Positions 16,276 through 37,188 of a stretch of 64,000 nucleotides of DNA are shown one piece after another. Location of the stretch: the IMG/VR virus record IMGVR_UViG_3300046373_000049, positions 2,460-66,459 of that record; one strand, written 5' to 3'. Position numbers and translations under genes: made by a program. Under the pieces are notes generated by a model that saw only the letters and a list, made by a program, of their open reading frames with translations, was not told the origin of the DNA and ran no database searches. This stretch comes from a virus. Each line of letters starts with the position of its first letter. Within the stretch, counting starts at the first letter, position 1.

Positions 16276-16629
16276 ATGAAGCTCGACAAATCCAAGCCTT
16301 ACGGCACAGTCTTCGGTGACAACCAGGGCCGCGTATTCGACCAGGATGGCGAATATTTCCGTGGCGACGGTTCGCTGTGGGTTCCGACCGAAGAAGAGCT
16401 GGCAGCCGCTTCCGCGCAAGGCGATGAAACGCCGAACGACGATCAGAAGGAAGAAGCGGAAACCAACAAGGTGCGCAAGGAAACCGCAGCCAAGGGCGCC
16501 AGCAAGGCCAAGGCTCAAGCTGTCGGCAAGGCCAAGGCAAAGGCCGCCAAGGAGCCTGTCAAGGCCATCCAGGCAAAGCCGCTGTCGGCTGCCGATCAGC
16601 AAGTCGCTGACCAACTCACCCAAGGCTAG
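16276..16629 (+). CDS. hypothetical protein with an Ala/Lys-rich tail
   Basis: GGGGAG RBS; LDKSKPYGTV..FDQDGEYF. Confidence 0.7.
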   Translation: MKLDKSKPYGTVFGDNQGRVFDQDGEYFRGDGSLWVPTEEELAAASAQGDETPNDDQKEEAETNKVRKETAAKGASKAKAQAVGKAKAKAAKEPVKAIQAKPLSAADQQVADQLTQG

Positions 16630-23340: not shown

Positions 23341-24953
23341 ACGACGACTACATCAGCAACGAGCCGGTCGCAACCGGCTGGCTTCGCACTGAAATCAAGG
23401 GCGACAAGCTGGCCGGGATGGCTTACGTCCGCGAGGCGCGCAAGGCGCTTGGGCACCTCCGCATCATCCACGGCATCAATGACCGCATGTCCGCAGGCGA
23501 AGCTGGCGGCTTCTACAAGAACGCCTTCAGGAAAGAAGATGGCACGCTGATCGAGGTGCTGTCGAATAACGGCATGGATACGATTCGCATCACGACTCAG
23601 CAGGAGCAGGAATTCAAGTCGGAGACTGCCGAGGCAAAGCCTGTGGAAGCGGTCAATATCCGGCCAAGCATCAAACCCACTGAAACCATGTACGAGGCAG
23701 AGCCTAAGAAATTTGAAGAGCCTGTGCCCGTCAAGAAAAAAGAGATCGCCATGAAAAAGGAAGAGCGTGTTGCTTGCCTGTGGGAAGCCGACCAGGAGCA
23801 CTACTCCCCAGCCGTGTTCGGCTACAACATCAAAGGCCCGCTGGTGGGGGAAAATACCGATGTCTTCATGGGGGGCGGCATCACGCCGCTGACGCCGTTT
23901 CCAGAGTCGGCCCACACTAGCACCATGTTCATGTTCGACAAGAACACGATGGCAGCCAATGGCAGCTTCGCCTTGCCGAACGCCCCGACGCAGAACCTGG
24001 AAATGAGCTGGGACAACATCACCAACAAGTTCTTCATCAGCGATGTGACGGCAAACATCGGCGTCACTGTGTTCCAGGAATTCGGCCTGTACAAGTTCGG
24101 CCAGGGCGATAGCGGCACGCGATACATGCTGCCAACGCTGGGCGAGAACTCGTTCCAGAATAGCTACCTGGACAGCCAGCAAAGCGTGTCGAAGAACGTG
24201 GTGGCAATTACTGGCGGCGTCGGCGGCGCCTACTATCAAATCATGGATACGGAGTCGGGCGTCATCGTCAACTCGATCCCCATCGAATTCTTGCAGACCT
24301 TCCCAATGGAAAAGGTATGCGTGGCACCGAATGGCGACGTGATTACTGCCCGCTCGTGGGAAGGCCCGATTGAAATCGTCCGCCACGGGATTATTGCGCG
24401 CAGCTACCCGCAGCCCGGCATCCCAAACAATACCCCTGGGAATATCCAGATCGTTGTCTGCAACGACAACACGACCCTGTTTCTTTTCCAGCTCGATCTG
24501 TCCAATGTCGGGTCGCTCTACAAATTCACGCAGGCGACAGAGCTGTGGGAGAAGGTGGAATTTGATGGCGACTTCGGCCCATCATACACAGAGCTGAAAT
24601 ACCTTCCCGTCTATCCTAAGCTCATGCACGACGACGTAAGCGATGCTGTTGTTGTGGTGCGCGCTGACTCGACCGGCGCCTGGGTATTCAACGCGGTCGA
24701 TTGCCTGGATCAAGAGCTGGGCGATTTCTTCTTCCCGTTCGAGAATCCTCCGCAAGAGGAAACCGATAGCAGCGGCGGGATTTTCAACGGCTGCTTCCCA
24801 CAGATGATTCATGATGGCGCACTTGTTGTGCGCTATATTGTCGGTTCATCGTCGGCTTCGGTGACTTCGCAGCGCAAGTGCATCGCTGGCCTGTACGTCA
24901 TCGGCATCCTGCGCCAAACGAAAGATGAAGAATTTACTGAAGGGGAAGAATAA
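23337..24953 (+). CDS. putative tail protein
   Basis: 538 aa, beta-rich, within the tail module. Confidence 0.6.
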   Translation: MNDDYISNEPVATGWLRTEIKGDKLAGMAYVREARKALGHLRIIHGINDRMSAGEAGGFYKNAFRKEDGTLIEVLSNNGMDTIRITTQQEQEFKSETAEAKPVEAVNIRPSIKPTETMYEAEPKKFEEPVPVKKKEIAMKKEERVACLWEADQEHYSPAVFGYNIKGPLVGENTDVFMGGGITPLTPFPESAHTSTMFMFDKNTMAANGSFALPNAPTQNLEMSWDNITNKFFISDVTANIGVTVFQEFGLYKFGQGDSGTRYMLPTLGENSFQNSYLDSQQSVSKNVVAITGGVGGAYYQIMDTESGVIVNSIPIEFLQTFPMEKVCVAPNGDVITARSWEGPIEIVRHGIIARSYPQPGIPNNTPGNIQIVVCNDNTTLFLFQLDLSNVGSLYKFTQATELWEKVEFDGDFGPSYTELKYLPVYPKLMHDDVSDAVVVVRADSTGAWVFNAVDCLDQELGDFFFPFENPPQEETDSSGGIFNGCFPQMIHDGALVVRYIVGSSSASVTSQRKCIAGLYVIGILRQTKDEEFTEGEE

Positions 24954-27271
24954 TGTCTTGCGGCGGCGGATTCATTGTTGGTGATGTCCCGGAAGTTCTG
25001 GTCGATCCAGTCCTGCCGGTCGAGCCATATCCAGACCTTCCCCTGCTGGACGACCTGGAGCCGTTCGGCGGCCTGCCGGAAGTGCCAGCAGCCCAGCCAG
25101 CAGAGCCTGCGCTGCCAGCGGCGGAAGTCACCCCACCTGATTCGGTATCCGTAGCGCTCGTCGATTCGGCCACGCCCGGCGTCGTCGCTGGCGTCATCAC
25201 GCAGACTGGCGTGCTGGCCCAGGATTCCCAGGCATCTGCCCTTGCGACCATTGAGGCGCTGGCGCTGTACGACAATTCGTTCGAGCCTGTGGAAACGCCC
25301 GTCATCCCAGTTGGCAGCGTCGTTATCGCACCGCTTGGCGCCGCGCCGCCAGATACCGACCTGACGCCGAACTTCGCCACAGCACCAGACTCGCCAGTGA
25401 CGGCTGACATCCCGCTGGCCGACATCGGCATCGCTCCAGCATACGACGTGGCCGACATCACGCTGTTTGAAATCCCGCTGCCTGATCCGTTCGACGCGCT
25501 GCTGCCGAGCGAAGCCGTGTACGATGCGCTGCCGGTCGCCATCGAACCTGACTTCAGCCTGCCTGCCGTGCCGACCCTGATCGAGCTGACCGTGCCCGAT
25601 GCGCCTGTGCTCGACCTTCCTGTGTTCGATGCGGCGCCCGGCCTGAAGCCTGAAGCGCCTGAATCGGAATTCCACTATACCCAGGTCGAATACACCACGG
25701 CGCTGCTGACCGCTATGAATTCGCGGCTGGCCGATCTGGTCAGCGACATGACCGCCACCGGCATCGACGAGGACGTGGAGGATGCCATCTGGAACCGGGC
25801 TGCCGACCGCGAGGCCATGCTGACGCATCGCGCCACGGATGAAGCCCTGCGCCTGATGAAGTCCCGTGGCTTCCGCATCCCTGAAGCGTCGCTCGTCCGT
25901 ATCGTGCAGCAGGCTTTGCAGAGCGGCCTGCAACGCGACGCCAGCTTGCAGCGTGCTGTGGCGCTGGAGCGCGCAAACCTTCAACAAGCCAACTTCCGCT
26001 TCGCCCTGGAAACCACTGTATCGCTGGAGTCGCGCATGATCGACAAGGCGAACGCGGCCCAGGCCCGAGCACTGGAAGCTGCGAAGGCTACCGTCACAGC
26101 GGAAATCCAACTGTTCAACGCCAAGGTGCAAATGTTCTCGGCTGATGTCCAGGCGTTCGCCATGAAGGCCGAGGTCTTCAAGACCCGCTTGCAGGCGGCG
26201 CTGGCCCAGGTCGAAATCTACAAGGTGCAACTGGAAGCGCAGCGCGCCGTGGGCGAGGTCAACGATCAGAAGGTCGCCATCTACCGTGCGCAGATCGAGG
26301 GCGTGCGCGCCATCGTCGGCACGTACAGCACTCGCGTGGACGCGGCCAAGGCGCAGATCGCATCGAACAAATCCGTGGTCGAAGCCTACCGCTCGCGCAT
26401 CGGCGCACTGGAAGCCCAGGTCACGGCGAAGATCACGGAATACGACACGTACAGCGCCCGCGTGCGCGGCCAAGCTGCGAAGGTGCAAGTCTTCAGCAAA
26501 CAGGTGCAGGCGTACCGCTCCCGCGTCCAGGCGTTCGACACGACGGCAAAGGCCAAGGTAGCCGTCCAGGAACTGCGCTTCAAGCAGGCGAACGAGTATC
26601 CTCTCGAACTCTACAGCGCCCGCATCGACGCATACCGCATCGCGGCCACGGCTGAAGCCGAGCGCCTGCAAACCACGGCGTCCGTGTTCAATGCCCGCAT
26701 CCGCGCCTTCACCGCGCAGGAGGGCGCCAAGGTGGATCACGTCGGCGCCCAGGTAAAGGTCATGGCCGCCAATGCGGCAGCGCAGATCGCCCAGGCCGAG
26801 ACATCAATCGATGCCGCCCGGCAGAACTACGCCTCGGCAGAGAAGGCTTCCAATTCCGCGCAAGGCAACCTCCGTTCGGCTGGTCAGTTGAGCGGCCAGT
26901 TGGCTGCCGCCGCCATCGCAGCGCAAAGCGTCACGGCATCCATTTCCGAATCCGGCTCGATGTCCTCGTCGAACTCGGAATCGAATTCCGCCACGAACGC
27001 ACTCAGCTACTCGGCCAGCACGTCCACTGGTTCGTCGTCCTCGACCAGCACCGCATACAGCTCGACAAGCGGCCAGTCCGTGTCGAACTCGCGCAGCACG
27101 AACGAGGGCCGGGCCTACAGCAAGAGCCAGGGCAATTCGACTTCGCAACGTCGTTCGGCCAGCAACTCGACGCAGGTTTCCGCAAGCAACGGCAAGTCCG
27201 TCGCGCTCAACACTACTGTATCCTTGAGCACTAGCAACGAATGCTCCGATGTAACGACGATCAACGAATAG
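24953..27271 (+). CDS. virion or ejection protein, paralog A (Pro-rich, coiled-coil, Ser-rich tail)
   Basis: TGIDEDVEDAIW, RGFRIP, long heptad region, SxSxS tail. Confidence 0.7.
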   Translation: MSCGGGFIVGDVPEVLVDPVLPVEPYPDLPLLDDLEPFGGLPEVPAAQPAEPALPAAEVTPPDSVSVALVDSATPGVVAGVITQTGVLAQDSQASALATIEALALYDNSFEPVETPVIPVGSVVIAPLGAAPPDTDLTPNFATAPDSPVTADIPLADIGIAPAYDVADITLFEIPLPDPFDALLPSEAVYDALPVAIEPDFSLPAVPTLIELTVPDAPVLDLPVFDAAPGLKPEAPESEFHYTQVEYTTALLTAMNSRLADLVSDMTATGIDEDVEDAIWNRAADREAMLTHRATDEALRLMKSRGFRIPEASLVRIVQQALQSGLQRDASLQRAVALERANLQQANFRFALETTVSLESRMIDKANAAQARALEAAKATVTAEIQLFNAKVQMFSADVQAFAMKAEVFKTRLQAALAQVEIYKVQLEAQRAVGEVNDQKVAIYRAQIEGVRAIVGTYSTRVDAAKAQIASNKSVVEAYRSRIGALEAQVTAKITEYDTYSARVRGQAAKVQVFSKQVQAYRSRVQAFDTTAKAKVAVQELRFKQANEYPLELYSARIDAYRIAATAEAERLQTTASVFNARIRAFTAQEGAKVDHVGAQVKVMAANAAAQIAQAETSIDAARQNYASAEKASNSAQGNLRSAGQLSGQLAAAAIAAQSVTASISESGSMSSSNSESNSATNALSYSASTSTGSSSSTSTAYSSTSGQSVSNSRSTNEGRAYSKSQGNSTSQRRSASNSTQVSASNGKSVALNTTVSLSTSNECSDVTTINE

Positions 27272-27279
27272 GAAACAGC

Positions 27280-29412
27280 ATGTCCATTACGCCACCTCCG
27301 ATTATCGACACTGCATCTGGCATCGTAACTACCGTCCTGGGCGAGTCGCAAAGCATGGCGCAGCAGGCCATGTCTCGCGGCTTGACCGCGATTCAATCGC
27401 TGGGCAGTTTCGATGTGGACATCCCGCCACTGGATACGCCGGTCTTCGACATCCCGAGCATCGATTTGCTGGATGCTGGCGTGGCTCCGTCCGATCCAGG
27501 CAATCTGACAACGCCAGTAATCCCGCTGCCAGCGGAACCTGCGCAGGGAAATCTGCCTCCGCTGGATATTGGCGAGGCGCCGGAATATACCCTGGCCGCG
27601 CCGCTGCTGATCGACGTTCCGCTGCCTGACCCATTCGATGCGCTGACGCCGACCTCACCAAACCTGCCGGTAGTGTCGGCGCCTGTCGAGCCGGATTTCA
27701 CGCTGCCTGCCGTACCGACATTTGCAGCACTCAATATCCCAGCCGCGCCCGTGTTCGACATCCCGCTGTTCGACGACGTGGCGCCGGAAGCGCCAGATGC
27801 CATCGACGTGCAATTCGCCTGGGCTGAAACCGAGTACGCAAGCGACAACCTGACGACGCTCAATGAACGCCTGCTGGAAATTGTCGAAGGTGTATCGACC
27901 GGCCTGCCAGTGGAAATCGAAGAAGCCATCTGGCAGAAGGGCTGCGATGCCGAGGCCATGCTCACGTTCCAGGCCGTAAAGAATGCGCTTGACCTGACGG
28001 CAGCACGCGGGTTCAACATCCCAGGCGGCCAACTTGTACGCATTGTCCAGGAGGCAATCGAGTCGGGCCTGAAGAGCGATGCCGATCTGTCGCGCCAAGT
28101 GATGACGGATCAGGCAAAGCTGGAGCAATCAAACTTCCACTTCGCCTTCGGCAATGCAATGCAGCTCGAAGGCCGCCTGATCGAGCTGTTCAATCAGGTG
28201 CAGGCCCGTGCGCTCGACGCCGAGACTTTCCGCATCGGTGCGCTGGTCAACCTGTTCAACGCCCGCGTGGCCTTGTACACGGCTGACGTGCAAGCCTTCG
28301 GCGTCAAGGCCGAGGTATTCAAGACCCGGCTGCAAGCGGCCCTGGCCCAGCTTGAGGTCTACCGCGCCGAGCTGCAAGGGCTGAAGATCATCGGCAGCTT
28401 GAATGTCCAGTTGGCCCAGCAGTACAGCGCCCAGGTCGATGGCGTGAAGGCGCTGGCCGATGTCTACCGCGCCCGCGTCGAGGCCGTCAGCCTGACCGTG
28501 GAAACAAACCGCAACCGTACAGAACTGTACAAGGCGCAGATCGAATCCTATTCCGCCTTGGCGAAAGCGAACGGCGCCCAGGTGCAAGGATACCTGGGCC
28601 AAGTCCAGGCCGAGCAGACCAAGGTGGAAATGTTTAGCGAGCAAGTGCTCGCGTACAACTCCCGCGTGGACGCCTACCGCGCCCTGACCGATGCCAAGCT
28701 GGCCGACACGCAGTTCCAGTTCCGCCAGTTGCAGCAGTTCCCTGTGCAGCTCTATCGCGCAAAGATCACGGGCTACCAAGCGCAGATCAGCGGCGAGGCA
28801 GCGCGCCTTGGCGCCACGGCTGAAGTGTTCCGCGCCCGCGTGGACGCCTATGCAGCGGTCGAGCGCACGCAGGGCCAGCGCGCCTCGGCCCAGGCAGACA
28901 CGCTCGAAACGACGACGCGCCTGTATTCGACCCAGGCCCGCACGCAGCTCCAGGCTGGCATCATCAACATCGACGTGGCGCAACTGAAATCGGAAACGGC
29001 CCAGGCCGCGCTGCGGTCAGCCGGGCAACTGGCAACGCAACTGGCTTCCGCTGCAATGTCGGCCCGAAATGTGTCGGCATCCATCACTGGCGCCACATCA
29101 AATTCGGCTGGAGTCTCGGCATCGAATAGTATGTCGGTATCGGCAAGCACAGGTTTCAGCAGCAGCAGCAGCACGAGCACGAGCAGCAGCTCGACAACGG
29201 GCACGGCAAATAGTGCAAGCGCATCAATTTCTAACTCGCAATCGATGTCGCATAACCAGAGCCAGTCTGACTCTTTCGAGCAATCGGTATCGAATTCTGA
29301 ATCGAACTCTTCGTCGAATGAGACTTCACTCAGCGCCCGTAATGCGGCTTCAACAAGCGTAGGCAGCAGCCGACGCCTTACGAATAGCACCGTTTATCGT
29401 CACAAGGGATAA
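27280..29412 (+). CDS. virion or ejection protein, paralog B
   Basis: TGLPVEIEEAIW, RGFNIP; shares KAEVFKTRLQAALAQ with paralog A; SxSxS tail. Confidence 0.7.
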   Translation: MSITPPPIIDTASGIVTTVLGESQSMAQQAMSRGLTAIQSLGSFDVDIPPLDTPVFDIPSIDLLDAGVAPSDPGNLTTPVIPLPAEPAQGNLPPLDIGEAPEYTLAAPLLIDVPLPDPFDALTPTSPNLPVVSAPVEPDFTLPAVPTFAALNIPAAPVFDIPLFDDVAPEAPDAIDVQFAWAETEYASDNLTTLNERLLEIVEGVSTGLPVEIEEAIWQKGCDAEAMLTFQAVKNALDLTAARGFNIPGGQLVRIVQEAIESGLKSDADLSRQVMTDQAKLEQSNFHFAFGNAMQLEGRLIELFNQVQARALDAETFRIGALVNLFNARVALYTADVQAFGVKAEVFKTRLQAALAQLEVYRAELQGLKIIGSLNVQLAQQYSAQVDGVKALADVYRARVEAVSLTVETNRNRTELYKAQIESYSALAKANGAQVQGYLGQVQAEQTKVEMFSEQVLAYNSRVDAYRALTDAKLADTQFQFRQLQQFPVQLYRAKITGYQAQISGEAARLGATAEVFRARVDAYAAVERTQGQRASAQADTLETTTRLYSTQARTQLQAGIINIDVAQLKSETAQAALRSAGQLATQLASAAMSARNVSASITGATSNSAGVSASNSMSVSASTGFSSSSSTSTSSSSTTGTANSASASISNSQSMSHNQSQSDSFEQSVSNSESNSSSNETSLSARNAASTSVGSSRRLTNSTVYRHKG

Positions 29413-29418
29413 GACATC

Positions 29419-30894
29419 ATGGCAAACGAAATCGACGAAATCGCCAAGGAATCCAAGCGCTATGTCAACGCGCCGGTAAATCCACCGGCTGCCGTCGTCC
29501 AGCCGCGCAATGTGGACATCAGCCGCCCATACGAACAGCGTATCGGCAGCGTCCCATACTCGAATCCGAACGTGCAAGGCGGCCTGCTGTCGGCAGAAGC
29601 TGCCCAGTTCCAGCAAGAGCGCGGCTTGACGCAGAACCCTGTGCGTGGTGGCGCATCGCCAATCGCTGCTGCGGCAGCACCAGCAGCGCCAGCAGCAGCA
29701 CCATCGCCAATCCAAGCAGCAGCGCAAAAAGCTGGCAGCACGCTGGGCCGGATGACGACTGGCGCCGCGTCCAGTATTGGCGGCCTTGCATCGAAGGCGG
29801 CCCCGTTCATTGCTCCAGTGATGGAAGGTGGGCGCGTGCTCCAGGTGGCGGTCGATCCGAACACGACGAAATCCCAGGTGGCGCAGCAAGCAGTCGAAGG
29901 CGCATCGCGCTGGGGCGCTGCCGCTGGTGGCGCCTCGCTTGGCGCTGGCCTGGGCGCAATGGCTGGCCCGATTGCCCCAGTGGCAGCCCCTGTTGGCGGC
30001 GTCATCGGCGGCATCGGCGGCTACATCGCTGGCGACATGGCCGTGAATAAGCTGCGCTCGATGCTGGGCCTTGGCGATAAATCCCCTGTGCAGCAAGTGC
30101 AGGATCGCAATGCCGCTGCCGCTGGCGAGGCATATCAGCCAGCACGCCTGACCAATGATGCGCAATCCCGTATCGGCCTGCTTGGCTCGCAAAGCGCCAT
30201 GAACCCGCAGCCAGCAGCCGCAGCCGCTACAACGCCCGCCACGGCGCCGCAATCTGCGCAGGCACCTACCCAGCCGGGCGCTCGCATTCGTGCAGCGGCG
30301 GCCCCAGCAGCGCGGCCTGCTGGCCGTTCCCGCATTGCTCAAGCAGCAGCGCCAGCACAGCCGGGCGAAGATGGCACCGTCCAGGTCATCCGTGGCCTGG
30401 AACAAACCGTCGCCATCCCTGGCGTCAACGGCGGCCCGATGCGTGAAATCCCACTGGCTGCATACGAAGCTGGCAAGACCGACGCATATCAAAGCGCCGA
30501 GGCACAGGCTGCCGTCAATTCTGCTAACCCGGATCAGGTGAAGATGCAATCCAAGCTGGCGGAAATCGCCGCCGAGAATGCAGGCCGCATGGGCGTGGCT
30601 GGCATCGGCGCTAGTGCATCGCGCTACAACACGGATGCGAACATCGCCGCCCGCCGCGACGAGCTGAAGAACAACGTCATCTACTCGGACGACACGATCA
30701 CGGATGAATTCGGCAACGCCAAGGTTATCCGCCGTGCGTATCGTCCAGACGGCACGCCAATCACTGCGCCTACCCAGGCGAAGCCATCCCTTGATGTTGC
30801 CACGCAGCAAGCTCAGAATGCCGTGAAGGCTGGAGCCAACAAAGATGCCGTCAATGGTATCCTTACAGGCTACGGCTATCCGCCAATCAAATAA
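29419..30894 (+). CDS. putative internal virion (ejection) protein
   Basis: Ala/Gln/Pro-rich, with a glycine zipper (GAAAGGASLGAGLGAMAG...GGVIGGIGG). Confidence 0.65.
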   Translation: MANEIDEIAKESKRYVNAPVNPPAAVVQPRNVDISRPYEQRIGSVPYSNPNVQGGLLSAEAAQFQQERGLTQNPVRGGASPIAAAAAPAAPAAAPSPIQAAAQKAGSTLGRMTTGAASSIGGLASKAAPFIAPVMEGGRVLQVAVDPNTTKSQVAQQAVEGASRWGAAAGGASLGAGLGAMAGPIAPVAAPVGGVIGGIGGYIAGDMAVNKLRSMLGLGDKSPVQQVQDRNAAAAGEAYQPARLTNDAQSRIGLLGSQSAMNPQPAAAAATTPATAPQSAQAPTQPGARIRAAAAPAARPAGRSRIAQAAAPAQPGEDGTVQVIRGLEQTVAIPGVNGGPMREIPLAAYEAGKTDAYQSAEAQAAVNSANPDQVKMQSKLAEIAAENAGRMGVAGIGASASRYNTDANIAARRDELKNNVIYSDDTITDEFGNAKVIRRAYRPDGTPITAPTQAKPSLDVATQQAQNAVKAGANKDAVNGILTGYGYPPIK

Positions 30895-30903
30895 GGGCTG
30901 GAC

Positions 30904-33900
30904 ATGGAAAACGATAAAGACCTGGGCGCATTCGCGTCCACCGTTCCGCAGAAGCAGAACGACCTGGGCGACTTCGCTTCTGCTGTACCGGCCCCGCCGT
31001 CGCCCATCAAGCGCATGGCTTCGGATGTCGGCCTGTCACTGGCACGCGGTATTGTCGGCGCCCCTGAAGCGCTGATCGGCTTGGCCGACATTCCTTCTGG
31101 TGGCGCTGTCGGTAAGCTGGCCGAACAGGCTGGCATCAAGACCAAGGAAACAAAAAACATCATCGCGGATTACTACTCGCCAGAGTACAAGGCCGCGCAG
31201 GAAAAGGTCAACACGGCTGAAGGCTTTGTGCCGACCGTCGTTGCCGCTGCACAGAATCCTTCCACTATCGTCGGTAGCGCGGTTGAATCCCTGCCGTCCA
31301 TGGTGGCAGGCGGCGCCATTGGCCGCGTCGCCCGTGGCGCTTCAGCCATGAGTCCAGTTCTCGCTGGCGCCATTGGTGAGGGCGCTGTATCTGCTGGTCA
31401 GACGGCAGAGCAGGTTCGCCAGTCCACGGCGAATGGTCTGCTGACGCCTGAGCAAGCCGGGCTGGCTGCCGCATCCGGCGCCGCCACTGGCGCCATCAAC
31501 CTTGTTGGCGGCAAGATCGCGCAGAAGCTGGGTATTGCCGACCTGGATACCATGCTGGCTGGCGGCGCCGGTCAAGCAGGCCGCGCCGGGCTGGCTCGCC
31601 GCGTCGCGCAAGGCGCTGTAAGCGAAGGCTTGCTGGAAGAGGCGCCACAGTCATACCAGGAACAAGTGGCGCAGAACCTCGCCACCGGCCAGCAATGGAA
31701 CCAGGGCGCGGCCAATGCTGCTGCACAGGGCGCGCTGGCTGGCGGCCTGATGGGCGGCGGCGCGAACATCCCTGGCCCTATCACTGGCGCGGCCAACAAG
31801 GCAGCACCAGAACAGCCTGGAGCATCCGTACCCATCAAGACGATGGAAGCGGCACAGGCTCGCGCAAACCGCATGACCACGGAAACCGGCACGCCGTTTG
31901 AAGTCACGCCACATCCGACTGTCGGCGGCTCCTTCACCGTTACACCAGTCGAGGTGGAAAATGGAAAACCAGGACGAAGCGATGGAACAGGTGATGGAAA
32001 ACCATCTGGTGCAGCGAACGCTGTCATGGATTCCGCTGTACAACCCGCTAACATCATTGCAGATGCTGGAGCTGGTGGACGCGGGACTGGCGACGCCGGA
32101 CGAAATCAGCCTGTGGTCGAAGGATCAACTGCCGGAACCGCGCAACAGCCAGATCGAGTATCTGGCGATCCTGCTGACGCTGGACGTGCCGACCTCGCCG
32201 GTAATGTAGAAGCCGCTCCATTGGCGCCGCCCGCTGGCCCGATTGAAGCCGCCTCGCGCCTCGCGCCGCAAGCACCTGTCGCTGGCGCCGAGGCCGCTGC
32301 CGCTCCGCTGGAAGCAGCGGCTGCCGCCGCGCCCGTACAAGTGGCTCGCCCTGACGGCACCATCGTCGAGGCCACGAACATCGGTGCGAGCAAGGTCAAT
32401 CCAGCCGATCCTGCAAGCCTGCGCATGGCGACCGGCTTTGATCTGTCAGCGCACGACGCCGCGAACTCCCCGCTCAACGAGCGCCGCCTGTCCACGCCAG
32501 CCCAGCAGACCGCGAACAATGCCAAGCTGGGCGAGGCAGACTTCCAGGGCTTGACCGTCAAGGTGGAAAATCCACAGGGTTCGGTGCGCAGCGGCGTGGC
32601 CGAAGATAAGACCCCATGGAATACCCTGATGACTGAGCACTACGGCTACATCAAGGGCACCAAGGGAGCCGATGCCGCTGGCGTCGATACCTTCGTCGGC
32701 CCATCCGTGGACAGCCCCAAGGCTTTCGTCGTGGATCAGACCAGCGCCGATGGCAAGTTCGACGAGCACAAGGTCATGCTGGGCTTCAACACGCTGGACG
32801 AAGCGAAGGCTGCCTATTACGACAACTACCAGCAAGGCTGGCAGGGCGGCGAGAACATCAGCGAAACGACGGTCGATGGCCTGAAGGATTGGCTGAAGAC
32901 CGGCGAAACCACACAGCCATTCTCCGCGAACCAGACAACAGCGCCAGCGCAGGAAGCAGCACCAGCATCGCCCGCCGTGGCCCAGGCCCAGGCCGCCAAT
33001 GTCGTGCCGAAGGAACTGGCCGTGCAGGCGACCGGCACGTTTTCCGATCAGGCCGCAGCGCAGACCTTCGCCGCCACGAACAAGCTGGATGTCGAGGCCG
33101 TGCCGAATCCGAAGGGCGGATTTTCGCTGGCCCCGAAGGTGGCGCCGGAAACCGCACTGTCCCGCGTCGCTGACGACAAGCGCATCAATGAATTGAATAA
33201 GGCCATGGAAAGCGAGGGCGTCAAGATCAGCGTGGTGCGCAATGTCACGCCTGAGCAGCGCATCGTGCAGGCCGTGGCCGACAAGGCATTCGGCACGCGC
33301 CTGACCTACGTGACCGACAACGATGTTTTCCATGGCGTCGCATACAAGGGCGACGTGTACGTGGCGACCGGCGAGAAATCCCCGCTGATCCCCATCACAT
33401 TCCACGAGGTATCGCACATCCTGCAAATGACTGATAAGAAGCTGGCGTCAAAGCTGGAAGATTTCGTCGTGCAATACATGAAGCCGGGCCTTGTTCAAAG
33501 CCGCATCGACTACGAGAACTCCCGCGCTCCAGCGGAAAACCAGATCGGCCTTGAGCAAGGTTTCAATGAAACCATGGCAGACATCGGCGGCGCCGTGGCG
33601 GTCGATCCGAACTTCTGGCGCAAGATGGCCGAGCACGACGAAAGCCTGTTCCGCAAGGTGGCATACAAGGTCATGCAGATGCTGACCAAGGCCATCCGCG
33701 TGGCAGCCGGTTCGCACTTCGACATCGACCGCATGGTAAGCGACCGCGCTGCCGTGCAGGAAGCCATCGCAAAAGCCTGGGGCGAGTACAACAGCAACCG
33801 CGACAAGGGCGTTTATAAAGGCAAAGAAAATGGAACAGGATCGGATCAAAAAGCTGGAGGACAGCAAACCCTTGCGCGAAAAGTTCAAGAGCCAGCAGGA

Positions 33901-36900
33901 GTTTCAGGAAAGTCTGAATTACTGGATGCAGCACCAGGGAAAGATAATCGCGCTATCCCGCTCCGTGGACTCCCCACCTCCGTCATCGTCGATGGCAAAG
34001 CCGTAACCTTCGGCCCGTTCGCACCGGCCAAGGAAGCGGCGGAACGCTACCGCAAAGCGGCAGGCATCACTGCGCCTGTGCAGCGCGACTACGTGAAGGT
34101 CGATCCGCAGCGTGCCCGTGGCATCGCCGCAGAATTTGAGGACATGAAGCACGACCCGAGCGATCCGAAGGTCAAGGCGTCGTATGCCGCCATGATTAAA
34201 GAAACGCTGGCCCAGTACCAGGAAATCAAGAAGACCGGCCTGAAGATCGAGCTGATTACCGGCGCCGACCCATACGGCAATCCGCGCAAAGCCATTATGG
34301 ATGTCGTCAACAACAACCACTTGTGGGTCTACCCAACTACGTCGGGATTTGGCGGCACCGAGTCCGCAGGCGTGGACATCACCGGCAATCCACTGCTGGC
34401 GCCAGTGGACGAAAAGATCGGCAAGCACCAGCTTGTAGCGAACGATGTTTTCCGCATCGTCCACGATTACTTCGGCCACATCAAGGAGGGCGTCGGCTTC
34501 CGCGCCGAGGGCGAAGAGAACGCATGGCAGCAGCACGCTTCCATGTACTCCGACCTTGCCCGCCCAGCCATGACGACCGAGACTCGCGGCCAGAACTCAT
34601 GGGTAAATTTCGGCCCGTTCGCTGAATTCAACAAGACGGCAAACGGCGCCGACACGCAGTACGCTCCACAGAAAGTCGGCCTGATGCCTGAGTGGACGGC
34701 GACCAATGAGAAGCCGCAGTTCTCGCGCACGCCGCCCGACTGGATCAATCAAGTCCCAGGCATGACGCCTGAGATTGCGAAGAAGGTGGGCTTGTGGGTT
34801 CCTGAAAAAACCCTGGCAGAACGCTTCAACGAGCTGAAGCAAGACCTTGGCAAGAAGATGGTGCAGGGCATGGTCGATCAGTTCGCGCCCATCAAGGCGC
34901 TGGACATGAAGGCGTACATGCAGGCCCGGCTGTCGAAGGCATCCGATGGCGGCCTGGAAGCCATGCTGATGTATGGCAAGCTGGGCCTGGACGCCGATGG
35001 CGCCATCACGGTCAGCAATACGGGCGGCTTCATCGACTCCATGAAAAAGCTGGGCGTAGAGCAGGAGCGCTTCTTTTCCTGGGTAGCAGGCAACCGCGCC
35101 GCCGAGCTGAAGGCGAACGGCAAAGAAAACCTCTTCACCGATACCGACATCAGCGCGCTGAAGAACTTGAACCAGGGCGTGAATGCTGACGGCAAAAACC
35201 GTACAGCCCTGTACGCCGAGGTGCTGAAGGACTTGAACGGTTTCTCGAAATCCATCCTGGACATCGCAGAGAAGTCGGGCTTGATCGACGGCAACGAGCG
35301 CCACAAGTGGGAGAAGGATTTCTATGTGCCGTTCTACCGCGTCCTGGAAGATGACGGCAAGGCTGTCGGCCCGCGCAATCTGGCTGGCCTGACGAACCAG
35401 TACGCCTTCAAGAAGCTGAAGGGCGGCAAGGAAAACTTGAATGACCTGATGCAGAACACGGTCATGAACTGGGCGCATCTGTTGTCGGCATCGCTCAAGA
35501 ATCAGGCGGCCACGACGACCCTGGACGCGGCACAGAAACTGGGCGTGGCCCACAATGTCACGTCGTCCACGAAGGGTTCCGTCTTCGTCCTGAAGAATGG
35601 CAAGGAAATGCACTACGTCGTTGACGATCCATTCATCACCGATGCGATTTCTTCGCTCGCCTTCAGCGGCATGAAGGGCACCATCATCGACATCGCCACC
35701 AAGGCGAAGCGGATGCTGTCGTTCGGCGTGACGTTCGGCCCGACCTACAAAATCCGCAACATCATCCGCGACCAATTGCAAGCCGTGGCCGCGAACCCGA
35801 TGTCGCTCAACGTGGCGAAGAACCTTGCCACCGGCATCAAGTATTCGTCGAAGGACAATCCACTGTATGCGCAGATGCTGGCTGGCGGCGGCCTGTTCCG
35901 CATGGGCGCTGCCTACGAGGACAACCGCGCACAGCACCTGAAGAATCTGGTGAAGAAGCTCCCATCTGGCAGCATCGTGGACTCGACGACGAAGCTGCGC
36001 GGCGTGGCGAACAAAGCATACGACGCCTGGATGGAACTGGGCGACCGTGGCGAGACAATCACGCGGGCCGCGATCTACTCGCAGATGATGGCCGCTGGAG
36101 CAAGCCATCTGGAAGCCAGCTACAACACGCGGGACAGCATGGACTTCGGCCTGCAAGGTGCATGGCCTGCCGTCCGCCTGTTGACGCAAACCGTACCGTT
36201 CATGAATGCCCGCATGCAGGGTCTGTATAAGCTGGGCCGCGCAGCCAAGGAAAACCCACGCCGCTTCGCCACGGTGCTGGGCGCCACGTCCATCGCCACG
36301 ATTGCGCTGATGCTGGCGAGCCGCGACGACGAGGACTGGAAGCGCCGCGAGGAATGGGATCGTGACAGCTTCTGGTGGTTCAAAGTCGGCGGCAAAGCCA
36401 TTCGCATTCCAAAGCCATTCGAGATTGGCGCCATGGCATCCATTGCAGAGCGTGGCCTTGACATGATCCTGGAAGGCATGGACGAAAAGAGCCGCGACCG
36501 TTTCGCCAAGCGGCTGTATCACATCGTCATGGATAACCTGTCGATGAATCCTGTTCCGCAGCTCGTCAAGCCAGCACTCGACCTGTACGCCAACAAAGAC
36601 CCGTTCCGCCTGCGCGCCATTGAAACCCCTGGCATGGAAAAGCTGTCTAAGTCCGAGCGCATCGGCGGCAGCACGACCGGCATGGCCGTGATGCTTGGCA
36701 AGGCAGGCGTCCTGTCGCCAGTCCAGATCGACTACATCATCAGCGGATACTTCGGCTGGCTTGGTTCGCACATCGCCATGGCTGCCGACCCAGTGATGCG
36801 CCCAGTAATGGGCATGCCTGAAAAGGCTGAACGGAAGATCGACGACGCCTTCTTCGTGGGCGACTGGGTAAAGGAATTGCCATCGAACCAAAGCCGCTAT

Positions 36901-37188
36901 GTCGAAGAGTTTTATCGCCAAGCTGTCAAGGTGCGCGAAGCAACGGCTGACATGCAGCACTATAAAAAACTCGGCAATATCGAGAAGGCCCGCGAGATTT
37001 TCGAGGAAGACAAGGAGCTGATTAAGCAATCGCCGCGTTTCAATATGGCAACCACGAGTATCAATAAAATCAATTTACGAATTCAACAAGTACAAGCATC
37101 CAGTAAAATGGATGCCAAGCAGAAACGGGTTGAAGTGGATCGCCTTAGCGCTATGCGAAATAAGATTGCTGAAAGAGTAATGAAGTGA
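30904..37188 (+). CDS. large polyvalent internal virion protein (pyrophosphatase-like, zincin-like and LPD38-like domains)
   Basis: 2094 aa; ENPQGSVRSG..YGYIKGT..DEHKVMLGF; FHEVSH; VHDYFGH; C-terminal PFMNARMQG, EEWDRDSFW, RIPKPFEIG. Confidence 0.85.
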   Translation: MENDKDLGAFASTVPQKQNDLGDFASAVPAPPSPIKRMASDVGLSLARGIVGAPEALIGLADIPSGGAVGKLAEQAGIKTKETKNIIADYYSPEYKAAQEKVNTAEGFVPTVVAAAQNPSTIVGSAVESLPSMVAGGAIGRVARGASAMSPVLAGAIGEGAVSAGQTAEQVRQSTANGLLTPEQAGLAAASGAATGAINLVGGKIAQKLGIADLDTMLAGGAGQAGRAGLARRVAQGAVSEGLLEEAPQSYQEQVAQNLATGQQWNQGAANAAAQGALAGGLMGGGANIPGPITGAANKAAPEQPGASVPIKTMEAAQARANRMTTETGTPFEVTPHPTVGGSFTVTPVEVENGKPGRSDGTGDGKPSGAANAVMDSAVQPANIIADAGAGGRGTGDAGRNQPVVEGSTAGTAQQPDRVSGDPADAGRADLAGNVEAAPLAPPAGPIEAASRLAPQAPVAGAEAAAAPLEAAAAAAPVQVARPDGTIVEATNIGASKVNPADPASLRMATGFDLSAHDAANSPLNERRLSTPAQQTANNAKLGEADFQGLTVKVENPQGSVRSGVAEDKTPWNTLMTEHYGYIKGTKGADAAGVDTFVGPSVDSPKAFVVDQTSADGKFDEHKVMLGFNTLDEAKAAYYDNYQQGWQGGENISETTVDGLKDWLKTGETTQPFSANQTTAPAQEAAPASPAVAQAQAANVVPKELAVQATGTFSDQAAAQTFAATNKLDVEAVPNPKGGFSLAPKVAPETALSRVADDKRINELNKAMESEGVKISVVRNVTPEQRIVQAVADKAFGTRLTYVTDNDVFHGVAYKGDVYVATGEKSPLIPITFHEVSHILQMTDKKLASKLEDFVVQYMKPGLVQSRIDYENSRAPAENQIGLEQGFNETMADIGGAVAVDPNFWRKMAEHDESLFRKVAYKVMQMLTKAIRVAAGSHFDIDRMVSDRAAVQEAIAKAWGEYNSNRDKGVYKGKENGTGSDQKAGGQQTLARKVQEPAGVSGKSELLDAAPGKDNRAIPLRGLPTSVIVDGKAVTFGPFAPAKEAAERYRKAAGITAPVQRDYVKVDPQRARGIAAEFEDMKHDPSDPKVKASYAAMIKETLAQYQEIKKTGLKIELITGADPYGNPRKAIMDVVNNNHLWVYPTTSGFGGTESAGVDITGNPLLAPVDEKIGKHQLVANDVFRIVHDYFGHIKEGVGFRAEGEENAWQQHASMYSDLARPAMTTETRGQNSWVNFGPFAEFNKTANGADTQYAPQKVGLMPEWTATNEKPQFSRTPPDWINQVPGMTPEIAKKVGLWVPEKTLAERFNELKQDLGKKMVQGMVDQFAPIKALDMKAYMQARLSKASDGGLEAMLMYGKLGLDADGAITVSNTGGFIDSMKKLGVEQERFFSWVAGNRAAELKANGKENLFTDTDISALKNLNQGVNADGKNRTALYAEVLKDLNGFSKSILDIAEKSGLIDGNERHKWEKDFYVPFYRVLEDDGKAVGPRNLAGLTNQYAFKKLKGGKENLNDLMQNTVMNWAHLLSASLKNQAATTTLDAAQKLGVAHNVTSSTKGSVFVLKNGKEMHYVVDDPFITDAISSLAFSGMKGTIIDIATKAKRMLSFGVTFGPTYKIRNIIRDQLQAVAANPMSLNVAKNLATGIKYSSKDNPLYAQMLAGGGLFRMGAAYEDNRAQHLKNLVKKLPSGSIVDSTTKLRGVANKAYDAWMELGDRGETITRAAIYSQMMAAGASHLEASYNTRDSMDFGLQGAWPAVRLLTQTVPFMNARMQGLYKLGRAAKENPRRFATVLGATSIATIALMLASRDDEDWKRREEWDRDSFWWFKVGGKAIRIPKPFEIGAMASIAERGLDMILEGMDEKSRDRFAKRLYHIVMDNLSMNPVPQLVKPALDLYANKDPFRLRAIETPGMEKLSKSERIGGSTTGMAVMLGKAGVLSPVQIDYIISGYFGWLGSHIAMAADPVMRPVMGMPEKAERKIDDAFFVGDWVKELPSNQSRYVEEFYRQAVKVREATADMQHYKKLGNIEKAREIFEEDKELIKQSPRFNMATTSINKINLRIQQVQASSKMDAKQKRVEVDRLSAMRNKIAERVMK
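31961..32209 (+). CDS. nested +1-frame gene (82 aa) inside the polyvalent protein gene
   Basis: GAGGT RBS; codons mostly end in G/C while the host frame here ends in A/T. Confidence 0.65.
   Translation: MENQDEAMEQVMENHLVQRTLSWIPLYNPLTSLQMLELVDAGLATPDEISLWSKDQLPEPRNSQIEYLAILLTLDVPTSPVM
33830..34006 (+). CDS. nested +1-frame gene (58 aa) inside the polyvalent protein gene
   Basis: MEQDRIKKLEDSKPLREKFKSQQEFQESLNYWMQHQGKIIALSRSVDSPPPSSSMAKP; A-rich AAAGG leader; same codon-bias switch. Confidence 0.6.
   Translation: MEQDRIKKLEDSKPLREKFKSQQEFQESLNYWMQHQGKIIALSRSVDSPPPSSSMAKP

Follow-up and report, generated by a model that had tools for sequence, protein, structure and literature searches.

Does the gene for a giant phage virion protein carry a second, separately translated gene within one of its linkers? 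The question is raised by a stretch of 64,000 nucleotides (nt) of viral DNA, hereafter the window (IMG/VR record IMGVR_UViG_3300046373_000049, positions 2,460 to 66,459), which makes up most of a record of 66,459 bases with direct terminal repeats at its ends and approximately 60% GC. An earlier note had drawn attention to a small open reading frame (ORF) at 31961-32209, lying wholly within a long ORF on the same strand. From the analysis reported here, this small ORF is probably a true embedded gene, coding for a protein in the +1 frame of a polyvalent virion-protein gene, a reading to which we assign a probability of roughly 0.7. The argument concerns the following features, where GC3 is the fraction of G or C at third codon positions and L002 is a related locus.

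30904-37188, plus strand: host gene, polyvalent (DarB-like) virion protein of 2094 amino acids (aa); from the ORF list, its translation, Pfam and PHROG.
31961-32209, plus strand: candidate embedded gene, 82 aa, +1 frame of the host ORF (ATG 31961, TAG 32207-32209); from the ORF list, codon statistics, L002 and homologues.
31951-31956, plus strand: putative Shine-Dalgarno (SD) sequence GAGGTG, 4 nt before the nested ATG; from the sequence, with GAGG kept in L002.
31960-32211, plus strand: long-frame reading of the same DNA, a linker rich in G, A, D, P and R, approximately residues 353-436; GC3 approximately 0.37, codon z -9.4.

Start signal and codon usage of the embedded frame

The coordinates of the small ORF, its 82-aa sequence and the ribosome-binding site reported as GAGGT in the earlier note were all recovered as described. 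The nested start reads GAGGTG-N4-ATG, with both GAGG and the ATG retained in L002, and the predicted product is acidic (13 D/E versus 3 K/R). The +1 frame is open for 27 codons 5' of the nested ATG, from 31880, and the long frame is stop-free throughout 30904-37185. A search for an internal promoter found no promoter-like sites in 30500-34500.

The GC content of the nested codons at positions 1, 2 and 3 (0.63, 0.33 and 0.78) resembles that of the whole long ORF (0.63, 0.45 and 0.72), in agreement with the claim that about three-quarters of them end in G or C. The GC3 values also bore out the statement that the long frame turns to A/T-ending codons over exactly this interval, its GC3 dropping to 0.37 in 31984-32232. 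Sliding windows over the long ORF (n = 82) were scored with codon statistics learned from the window's 14 other ORFs; the +1 frame outscored the long frame in five of them, four consecutive at 31879-32104 and one at 33829. When each of the 14 other ORFs was left out in turn as a control, 10 of 288 windows flipped frame. Eight of these fell in the opening 300 nt of a listed ORF, and two were either marginal or close to a 3' end. The control flips at 5' ends probably reflect over-extended listed starts. As a separate observation on the window, several listed long ORFs (at 16316-16600, 23250, 41369 and 55089) begin with 75-300 nt whose coding signal is in a different frame; their listed starts are probably placed too far 5' and run into the 3' end of the gene before.

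In a recoding test, the peptide of one frame was held while its codons were redrawn from genome usage in 5000 trials. None of the 5000 recodings of the long-frame peptide reached the observed +1 likelihood (z +4.2). Judged by its own codons, the nested frame is typical for the genome (z +0.7), and the long frame over the interval is strongly disfavoured (z -9.4). Only two of 23 tiles along the long ORF stood out in codon usage (-9.7 at 31951 and -5.7 at 33694); all remaining tiles ranged from -2.7 to +2.2. In the reverse direction, with the nested peptide held, only 239 and 263 of 5000 trials left the long frame open, and the open long frame is therefore probably maintained rather than accidental.

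These recodings also bear on the idea of a compositional accident, in which a Gly/Ala/Asp-rich linker in a genome of 60% GC simply leaves the +1 frame open and coding-like. Openness as such is easily obtained, the +1 frame being left open in 1363 of the 5000 recodings of the linker peptide (27%), but none of these reached the observed likelihood. Moreover, the next linker, 32210-32340, which is Ala/Pro-rich, retains a high GC3 and the preference for the long frame. Taken with the homologues and the predicted fold described below, which also speak against it, we find such an accident scarcely credible.

Selection on the two frames and homologues of the 82-aa product

Among 80 loci encoding relatives of the long protein, which were gathered through its pyrophosphatase-like InPase domain, L002 is the only close relative, its long protein being 86% identical over residues 1-2094. 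Neither frame contains a stop over the interval in L002, so that the nested-frame stops in close homologues that the earlier note named as evidence against a gene are absent from this one diverged lineage. The nested peptide is 87% identical between the two loci over 109 aa, and the long-frame segment spanning the nested ORF 79% identical over 127 aa. Over 31994-32206, the ratio of nonsynonymous to synonymous substitution rates (dN/dS, Nei-Gojobori) is 0.39 in the nested frame (6.8 synonymous and 8.2 nonsynonymous differences) and 2.6 in the long frame (2 and 13, respectively); in the upstream flank, 31840-31960, the long-frame value is 0.16. Within the interval, 10 differences are synonymous only in the nested frame and 4 only in the long frame, versus 6 and 35 in the 276 nt upstream classified in the same way (Fisher p = 1.6e-4). 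A 3-nt indel just past the nested stop preserves the long frame. These values agree with the earlier suggestion that the nested frame is under selection and the long frame simply kept open.

In soil metagenome run X1, contigs covering window positions 31600-34200 are either identical to the window (depth approximately 51) or L002-like (depth approximately 150-200), and two strains of this phage co-occur in that sample. With these two variants, run X1 contributes no further independent lineage. Runs X2-X4 gave short pieces only and no new lineage for dN/dS; in run X4, whose RNA-Seq label is only a guess, two 151-nt contigs over 31880-32182 have no bearing on expression.

We used the stop-to-stop +1 translation to search for homologues of the 82-aa family (F1). 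A phmmer search of 1.84 billion representative proteins returned five matches, four of them small (66-84 aa):

P0003: 79% identity, E 8e-30
P0004: 47% identity, E 3e-11
P0005: 38% identity, E 1e-4
P0006: 36% identity, E 2.5e-4

The fifth match, a 1166-aa repeat protein (E 7.7e-4), was regarded as spurious. A profile search added a fifth small metagenomic homologue, P0008 (69 aa), and the five range down to 33% identity. Twelve alignment columns are invariant, including W23, P25, Q34, W52, R61, D75 and P80, and all the small homologues start with Met no more than 25 residues from the conserved core. No longer, fused form of the family was found by phmmer or by a profile search aimed at longer proteins. 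The window's own 82-aa sequence is absent from a collection of 15 billion proteins, as expected because gene callers suppress nested ORFs. Scans of viral, metagenome and genome contigs, by alignment or with single proteins, for contigs encoding P0003-P0008 gave only the contig of L002, and tblastn gave no matches, either for P0002 in phages or for P0004 in plasmids and phages.

The AlphaFold2 model of the 82-aa product, built from a 7-row alignment, has a mean predicted local distance difference test (pLDDT) score of 79.8, with 10-residue blocks across residues 31-70 at 92-96. The helices predicted at 32-40, 46-53 and 61-73 form a confident three-helix core. Foldseek searches with this model gave a best E of 3.4 in PDB and 2.5 in BFVD; the ESM Atlas yielded no usable match. 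The existence of homologues at 33-47% identity and of a confidently predicted fold argues against the accidental origin considered above.

The host gene and nested ORFs in its relatives

The product of 30904-37188 is, by its predicted domain content, a phage polyvalent virion protein in the sense in which Iyer et al. (2017; PMC5512222) use the term. The assignment is made because the protein carries InPase and LPD38 domains, its PHROG matches are to giant virion and DarB-like families, and its ORF lies downstream of others assigned to terminase, portal, head closure and virion proteins. Both domains score above the gathering cut-offs (158.5 bits versus 26.8 for PF18823 and 102.1 bits versus 27 for PF18857). 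Their coordinates were computed from the ORF start and are given here together with a second nested ORF:

32500-32898, plus strand: InPase (type I pyrophosphatase-like) domain, residues 533-665; Pfam PF18823, E 1e-46.
36328-36840, plus strand: LPD38 domain near the C-terminus, residues 1809-1979; Pfam PF18857, E 5e-29.
33830-34006, plus strand: second nested ORF, 58 aa, +1 frame, residues 976-1034 of the host protein; from its codon signature and the core kept in L002.

Upstream of the polyvalent gene, the adjacent plus-strand ORFs 24953-27271 (772 aa) and 27241-29412 (723 aa) both match phrog_10969 (E 2e-93 and 5e-96); they are tandem paralogous genes of the virion module, just 5' of a 491-aa ORF and the polyvalent gene.

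The second nested ORF shows a nested likelihood of z +4.8 given the long-frame peptide and a long-frame codon z of -8.1. Its core, KLE(D/E)SKPLREKFKSQ...NYWMQHQGK, is kept in L002, where the ATG reads ACG and another ATG lies further upstream; six changes are synonymous in the nested frame and four in the long frame. No homologue of the 58-aa ORF was found among called proteins. The earlier note had paired this ORF with 31961-32209, and the pairing is real as a pattern, considering that both share the same codon signature and that nested ORFs recur in related loci, as follows.

The long ORFs of the related loci were scanned for +1 or +2 ORFs that outscore the long frame. The scan yielded 29 candidates, the window's own included, which clustered into several families. 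Hidden Markov models of seven families placed nested ORFs in 40 of the 80 loci, every match lying inside a long ORF, and the families thus number at least seven. The nested ORFs sit at inter-domain linkers, where the long frame is rich in G, A, D and R and low in GC3, and an SD-like motif precedes the ATG in many of those examined. Their coordinates in the related loci are:

L003, 3283-3492
L030, 2464-2646
L054, 2632-2835
L051, 2146-2349
L017, 1492-1686, with 28 further loci
L023, 3742-3948
L043, 2638-2862

Family F3 (64 aa) was found at 29 loci, where the DNA sequence takes 27 distinct forms; both frames are stop-free in all of them, at nucleotide identities down to 67%. In all 27 the ORF is preceded by GAGGTG-N4-ATG. 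It ends approximately 105 codons 5' of InPase, the same relative position as that of the window's ORF. Across the 27 sequences, the extra alleles by nested codon position 1, 2 and 3 number 48, 46 and 78, and 68 variants are synonymous in the nested frame only versus 37 in the long frame only (expected share 0.46, binomial p = 1e-4). The mean amino-acid identity is 0.74 for the nested and 0.61 for the long reading. AlphaFold2 predicts three helices (pLDDT 84.9) for F3, and a Foldseek search of PDB with this model gave nothing usable. A helix-LPxP-helix motif shared by F1 and F3 is a visual impression only. For family F2, peptides were compared between three widely differing loci: two pairs aligned (E 1e-10 and 9e-6) and one pair gave no match. 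The long-frame peptides of the same DNA give no alignment (E 1.6 or worse).

A different explanation of the codon signature is that the small ORF is the fossil of a captured gene, swallowed in a fusion of virion genes and surviving as a codon relic that is no longer translated or selected. A recent capture would likewise leave typical nested codons and atypical long-frame codons, and translation of the nested ORF is predicted here from its sequence. However, a relic should gather changes that are random or synonymous in the long frame, and the changes seen favour synonymy in the nested frame. The SD and the ATG persist in L002, and in the analogous F3 an invariant SD-ATG and an intact ORF are found across all 27 sequences. 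We therefore hold a fossil to be rather improbable.

Nested ORFs of these families are also found, unannotated, in cultured phages. F3 lies inside ARM81mr_p69 of Aeromonas phage phiARM81mr (L083, 7001-7195; 50936-51127 of the phage record). F6 matches 21 records of 12 named phages, in features called DarB-like antirestriction protein, DNA methylase or PLxRFG protein; Lastavirus and Ittyvirus phages are among its carriers. According to the record coordinates, F6 is in the +1 frame relative to the annotated coding sequence (CDS) in Erwinia phage PEp14 and Klebsiella phage SopranoGao (L086), the former being listed as:

L084, 1501-1818: nested F6 ORF of Erwinia phage PEp14 (NC_016767 from 31778).

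In both phages the long reading is rich in G, R, A and D; its GC3 is 0.35-0.40, versus 0.76-0.80 for the nested reading. The nested ORFs of cultured phages are preceded by an SD, and none is a CDS in the GenBank records examined, where only the giant gene is annotated. Such embedded proteins are missing from databases because gene callers forbid nested genes on the same strand. A side observation concerns Pseudomonas phage Itty13 (L085, NC_070969 5617-8823), where an F6-like ORF and an open G/R-rich frame lie opposite the annotated strand, on which two CDS (PQC19_gp02 and gp03) are each called 'hypothetical protein'; the record may annotate the wrong strand of the giant gene.

Several observations weigh against the gene reading or against its extension to related loci. 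The DNA available for the 82-aa family comes from one diverged lineage only, L002 and its twin in run X1, and the 10:4 split taken alone against its own expectation gives p = 0.06. The five small homologues all come from short assembled contigs and may be nested or free-standing. Among sequencing runs, none recorded as RNA contains the stretch, and contigs in general cannot reveal the reading frame used. As to function, no family in Pfam, PHROGs or NCBIfam matches the 82-aa product. The comparison of F1 and F3 profiles with hhalign revealed no homology, and F5 (L042, L043 and L060) is Pro/Ala-rich, of low complexity and may be an artefact. The scan gave candidates in the +1 frame only, with +2 unrepresented; this uniformity also counts in favour of a compositional accident, and the base composition of GC-rich genes may account for part of the preference for +1. 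Finally, the F6 peptides nested at L055 3394-3705 and L033 5803-6108 match phrog_938, a family labelled endolysin with a profile of 2185 positions, at 2084-2169 (E 2e-21 and 1e-5).

Some member of phrog_938 could therefore carry the F6 segment in frame at its C-terminus, and in-frame or frameshifted forms could exist. Locus L004 was considered as a split form and ruled out, its 2826-aa ORF being continuous. The match near the end of a giant-protein profile is one ground for a recoding isoform, in which ribosomes would shift to +1 upstream of 31961 and end at 32207, giving a truncated N-terminal module with a structured tail. The 27 open +1 codons before the nested ATG would admit such an entry, and the internal SD may stimulate +1 shifting, as an internal SD can do in prfB. 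On the other side, all the small homologues begin with Met close to their core, and for F3 and F6 an upstream shift is excluded as a way in, their +1 frame being closed only 1-2 codons ahead of the ATG that follows the SD. The long frame also offers no stop at which ribosomes would pause; since it is stop-free over 30904-37185, a shift site of the prfB type is impossible, other kinds of site not having been searched. A frameshift isoform is thus unlikely, and as an account of the window's ORF we give it very little weight.

Origin, role and comparison with known systems

On the preferred reading, that of an embedded gene, a late mRNA of the virion module would carry both readings. Ribosomes that start at 30904 would read through the interval, which would then yield a disordered G/A/D/P/R linker joining the N-terminal module to InPase. 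Other ribosomes would initiate at the internal GAGGTG-N4-ATG and make an acidic three-helix protein of 82 aa, ending at TAG 32207; we infer an independent start at this internal SD-ATG from its sequence context. The long reading of the interval is of low complexity, with abnormal codons and relaxed or absent amino-acid constraint, yet it is kept open. Because the nested codons are typical and those of the long frame atypical, the small gene would be the primary or older frame and the linker the secondary one. This reverses the direction proposed in the earlier note, which had taken the small gene to be overprinted on the large one; codon usage suggests the opposite. The overlap may have arisen by fusion of neighbouring virion genes across a small gene, and the G/A/D/R composition of the linker would then follow because the GC-rich gene of an acidic protein is read one base out of register.

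Regarding the role of the product, the earlier note had proposed a cassette in which a partner travels with the neighbouring effector domain, so that InPase would have in the nested protein its own immunity protein or chaperone, much as immunity genes accompany polymorphic toxins. The product is indeed small and acidic, as are many secretion chaperones. Moreover, nested ORFs lie near InPase in many loci: the domain starts approximately 98 codons past the nested stop in the window (F1), F3 and F7 lie approximately 105 and 74 codons upstream of it, and F2 is found on either side. However, the loci were collected through InPase, which biases this nearness. The co-occurrence check found the 82-aa family in only one of the 80 InPase-bearing loci (L002), and F1 therefore does not track InPase. 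F2 switches sides, being 74 codons upstream of the domain in L003 and 16-22 codons downstream in L030 and L054. Other nested ORFs are distant from it, namely the second ORF of the window (residues 976-1034), F4 and F6 (approximately residue 1567 of a 4914-aa protein). InPase is also without known toxicity; Iyer et al. (2017; PMC5512222) proposed nucleotide or pyrophosphate processing for it. A partner dedicated to InPase thus appears unlikely to us, although less so than the fossil.

We consider instead that the 82-aa protein may be a cis-encoded accessory, a small acidic escort or chaperone for the folding, packaging or ejection of the polyvalent protein, for which the chance is about one in three. 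The alternative of an independent small acidic anti-host factor is less favoured than this accessory role, a preference held with low confidence. A broader proposal, tentative and at somewhat under even odds, is that the giant DarB-like genes of many phages systematically hide separately translated +1 genes in their linkers. The at least seven families would then be examples, including those in cultured Erwinia, Klebsiella, Pseudomonas, Agrobacterium, Vibrio and Aeromonas phages; the linkers would be by-products of gene fusion across small genes, and the products cis-inherited partners acting in folding, packaging, ejection or on the host.

If the embedded genes are translated, polyvalent and DarB-like anti-defence proteins would have unrecognised small partners, and the 'linkers' of polyvalent proteins would gain a mechanical explanation. 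Fusion across a small gene would also become a documented route to overlap in double-stranded DNA (dsDNA) phages, opposite to classical overprinting. A simple screen for further cases would combine the collapse of long-frame GC3, typical codons in the +1 frame and an SD-ATG.

In likeness to known systems, type III effector chaperones are small, acidic, helical and encoded beside a cargo that crosses a narrow channel unfolded. The resemblance of the 82-aa product to them is an analogy only, no sequence or fold similarity having been found. Modular multidomain conflict proteins with small ORFs nearby, as in polymorphic toxin/immunity systems and polyvalent-protein cassettes, provide a second parallel. 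Small ORFs beside polyvalent genes were likened to toxin cassettes in the main text of Iyer et al. (2017; PMC5512222), where the words 'overlap' and 'frameshift' are not used at all. Unlike the ORFs described there, which lie beside the gene, those considered here lie inside it, and no co-variation with a domain was found for them. In the literature searched, comprising sources other than subscription journals and supplements, no account was found of a gene nested within a polyvalent or DarB-like gene. Embedded phage genes on the same strand are already known from Rz1 in Rz, and it is the nesting in polyvalent or DarB-like genes that is undescribed in the literature found.

Rz1 lies in the +1 frame of Rz, and in both cases a small gene would be wholly contained in a larger gene of the same strand, in another frame and on one late mRNA. 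Such an embedded class of spanin genes is reported for lambda-like and Bcep22-like phages in PMC9144972. In contrast to that pair, the host gene here encodes a giant ejected polyvalent protein rather than a lysis protein, and a lipoprotein signal is absent from the product. Over the overlap, the host frame here encodes a low-complexity linker, and several unrelated embedded families occupy different linkers.

The locus also resembles overprinted genes in having a dual-coding region with one frame of typical codons and one atypical frame that encodes a disordered peptide, a feature linked with the atypical frame of overprinted pairs. Dual coding as a concept is treated in a review (PMC8227390); overprinted genes of small viruses such as phiX174 and RNA viruses are examples. 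Unlike those, the candidate described here belongs to a 66-kb dsDNA phage without obvious size pressure. And in contrast to the usual course of overprinting, in which a new small ORF appears in an old gene, here it is the small gene that has typical codons and the linker of the large gene that is atypical.

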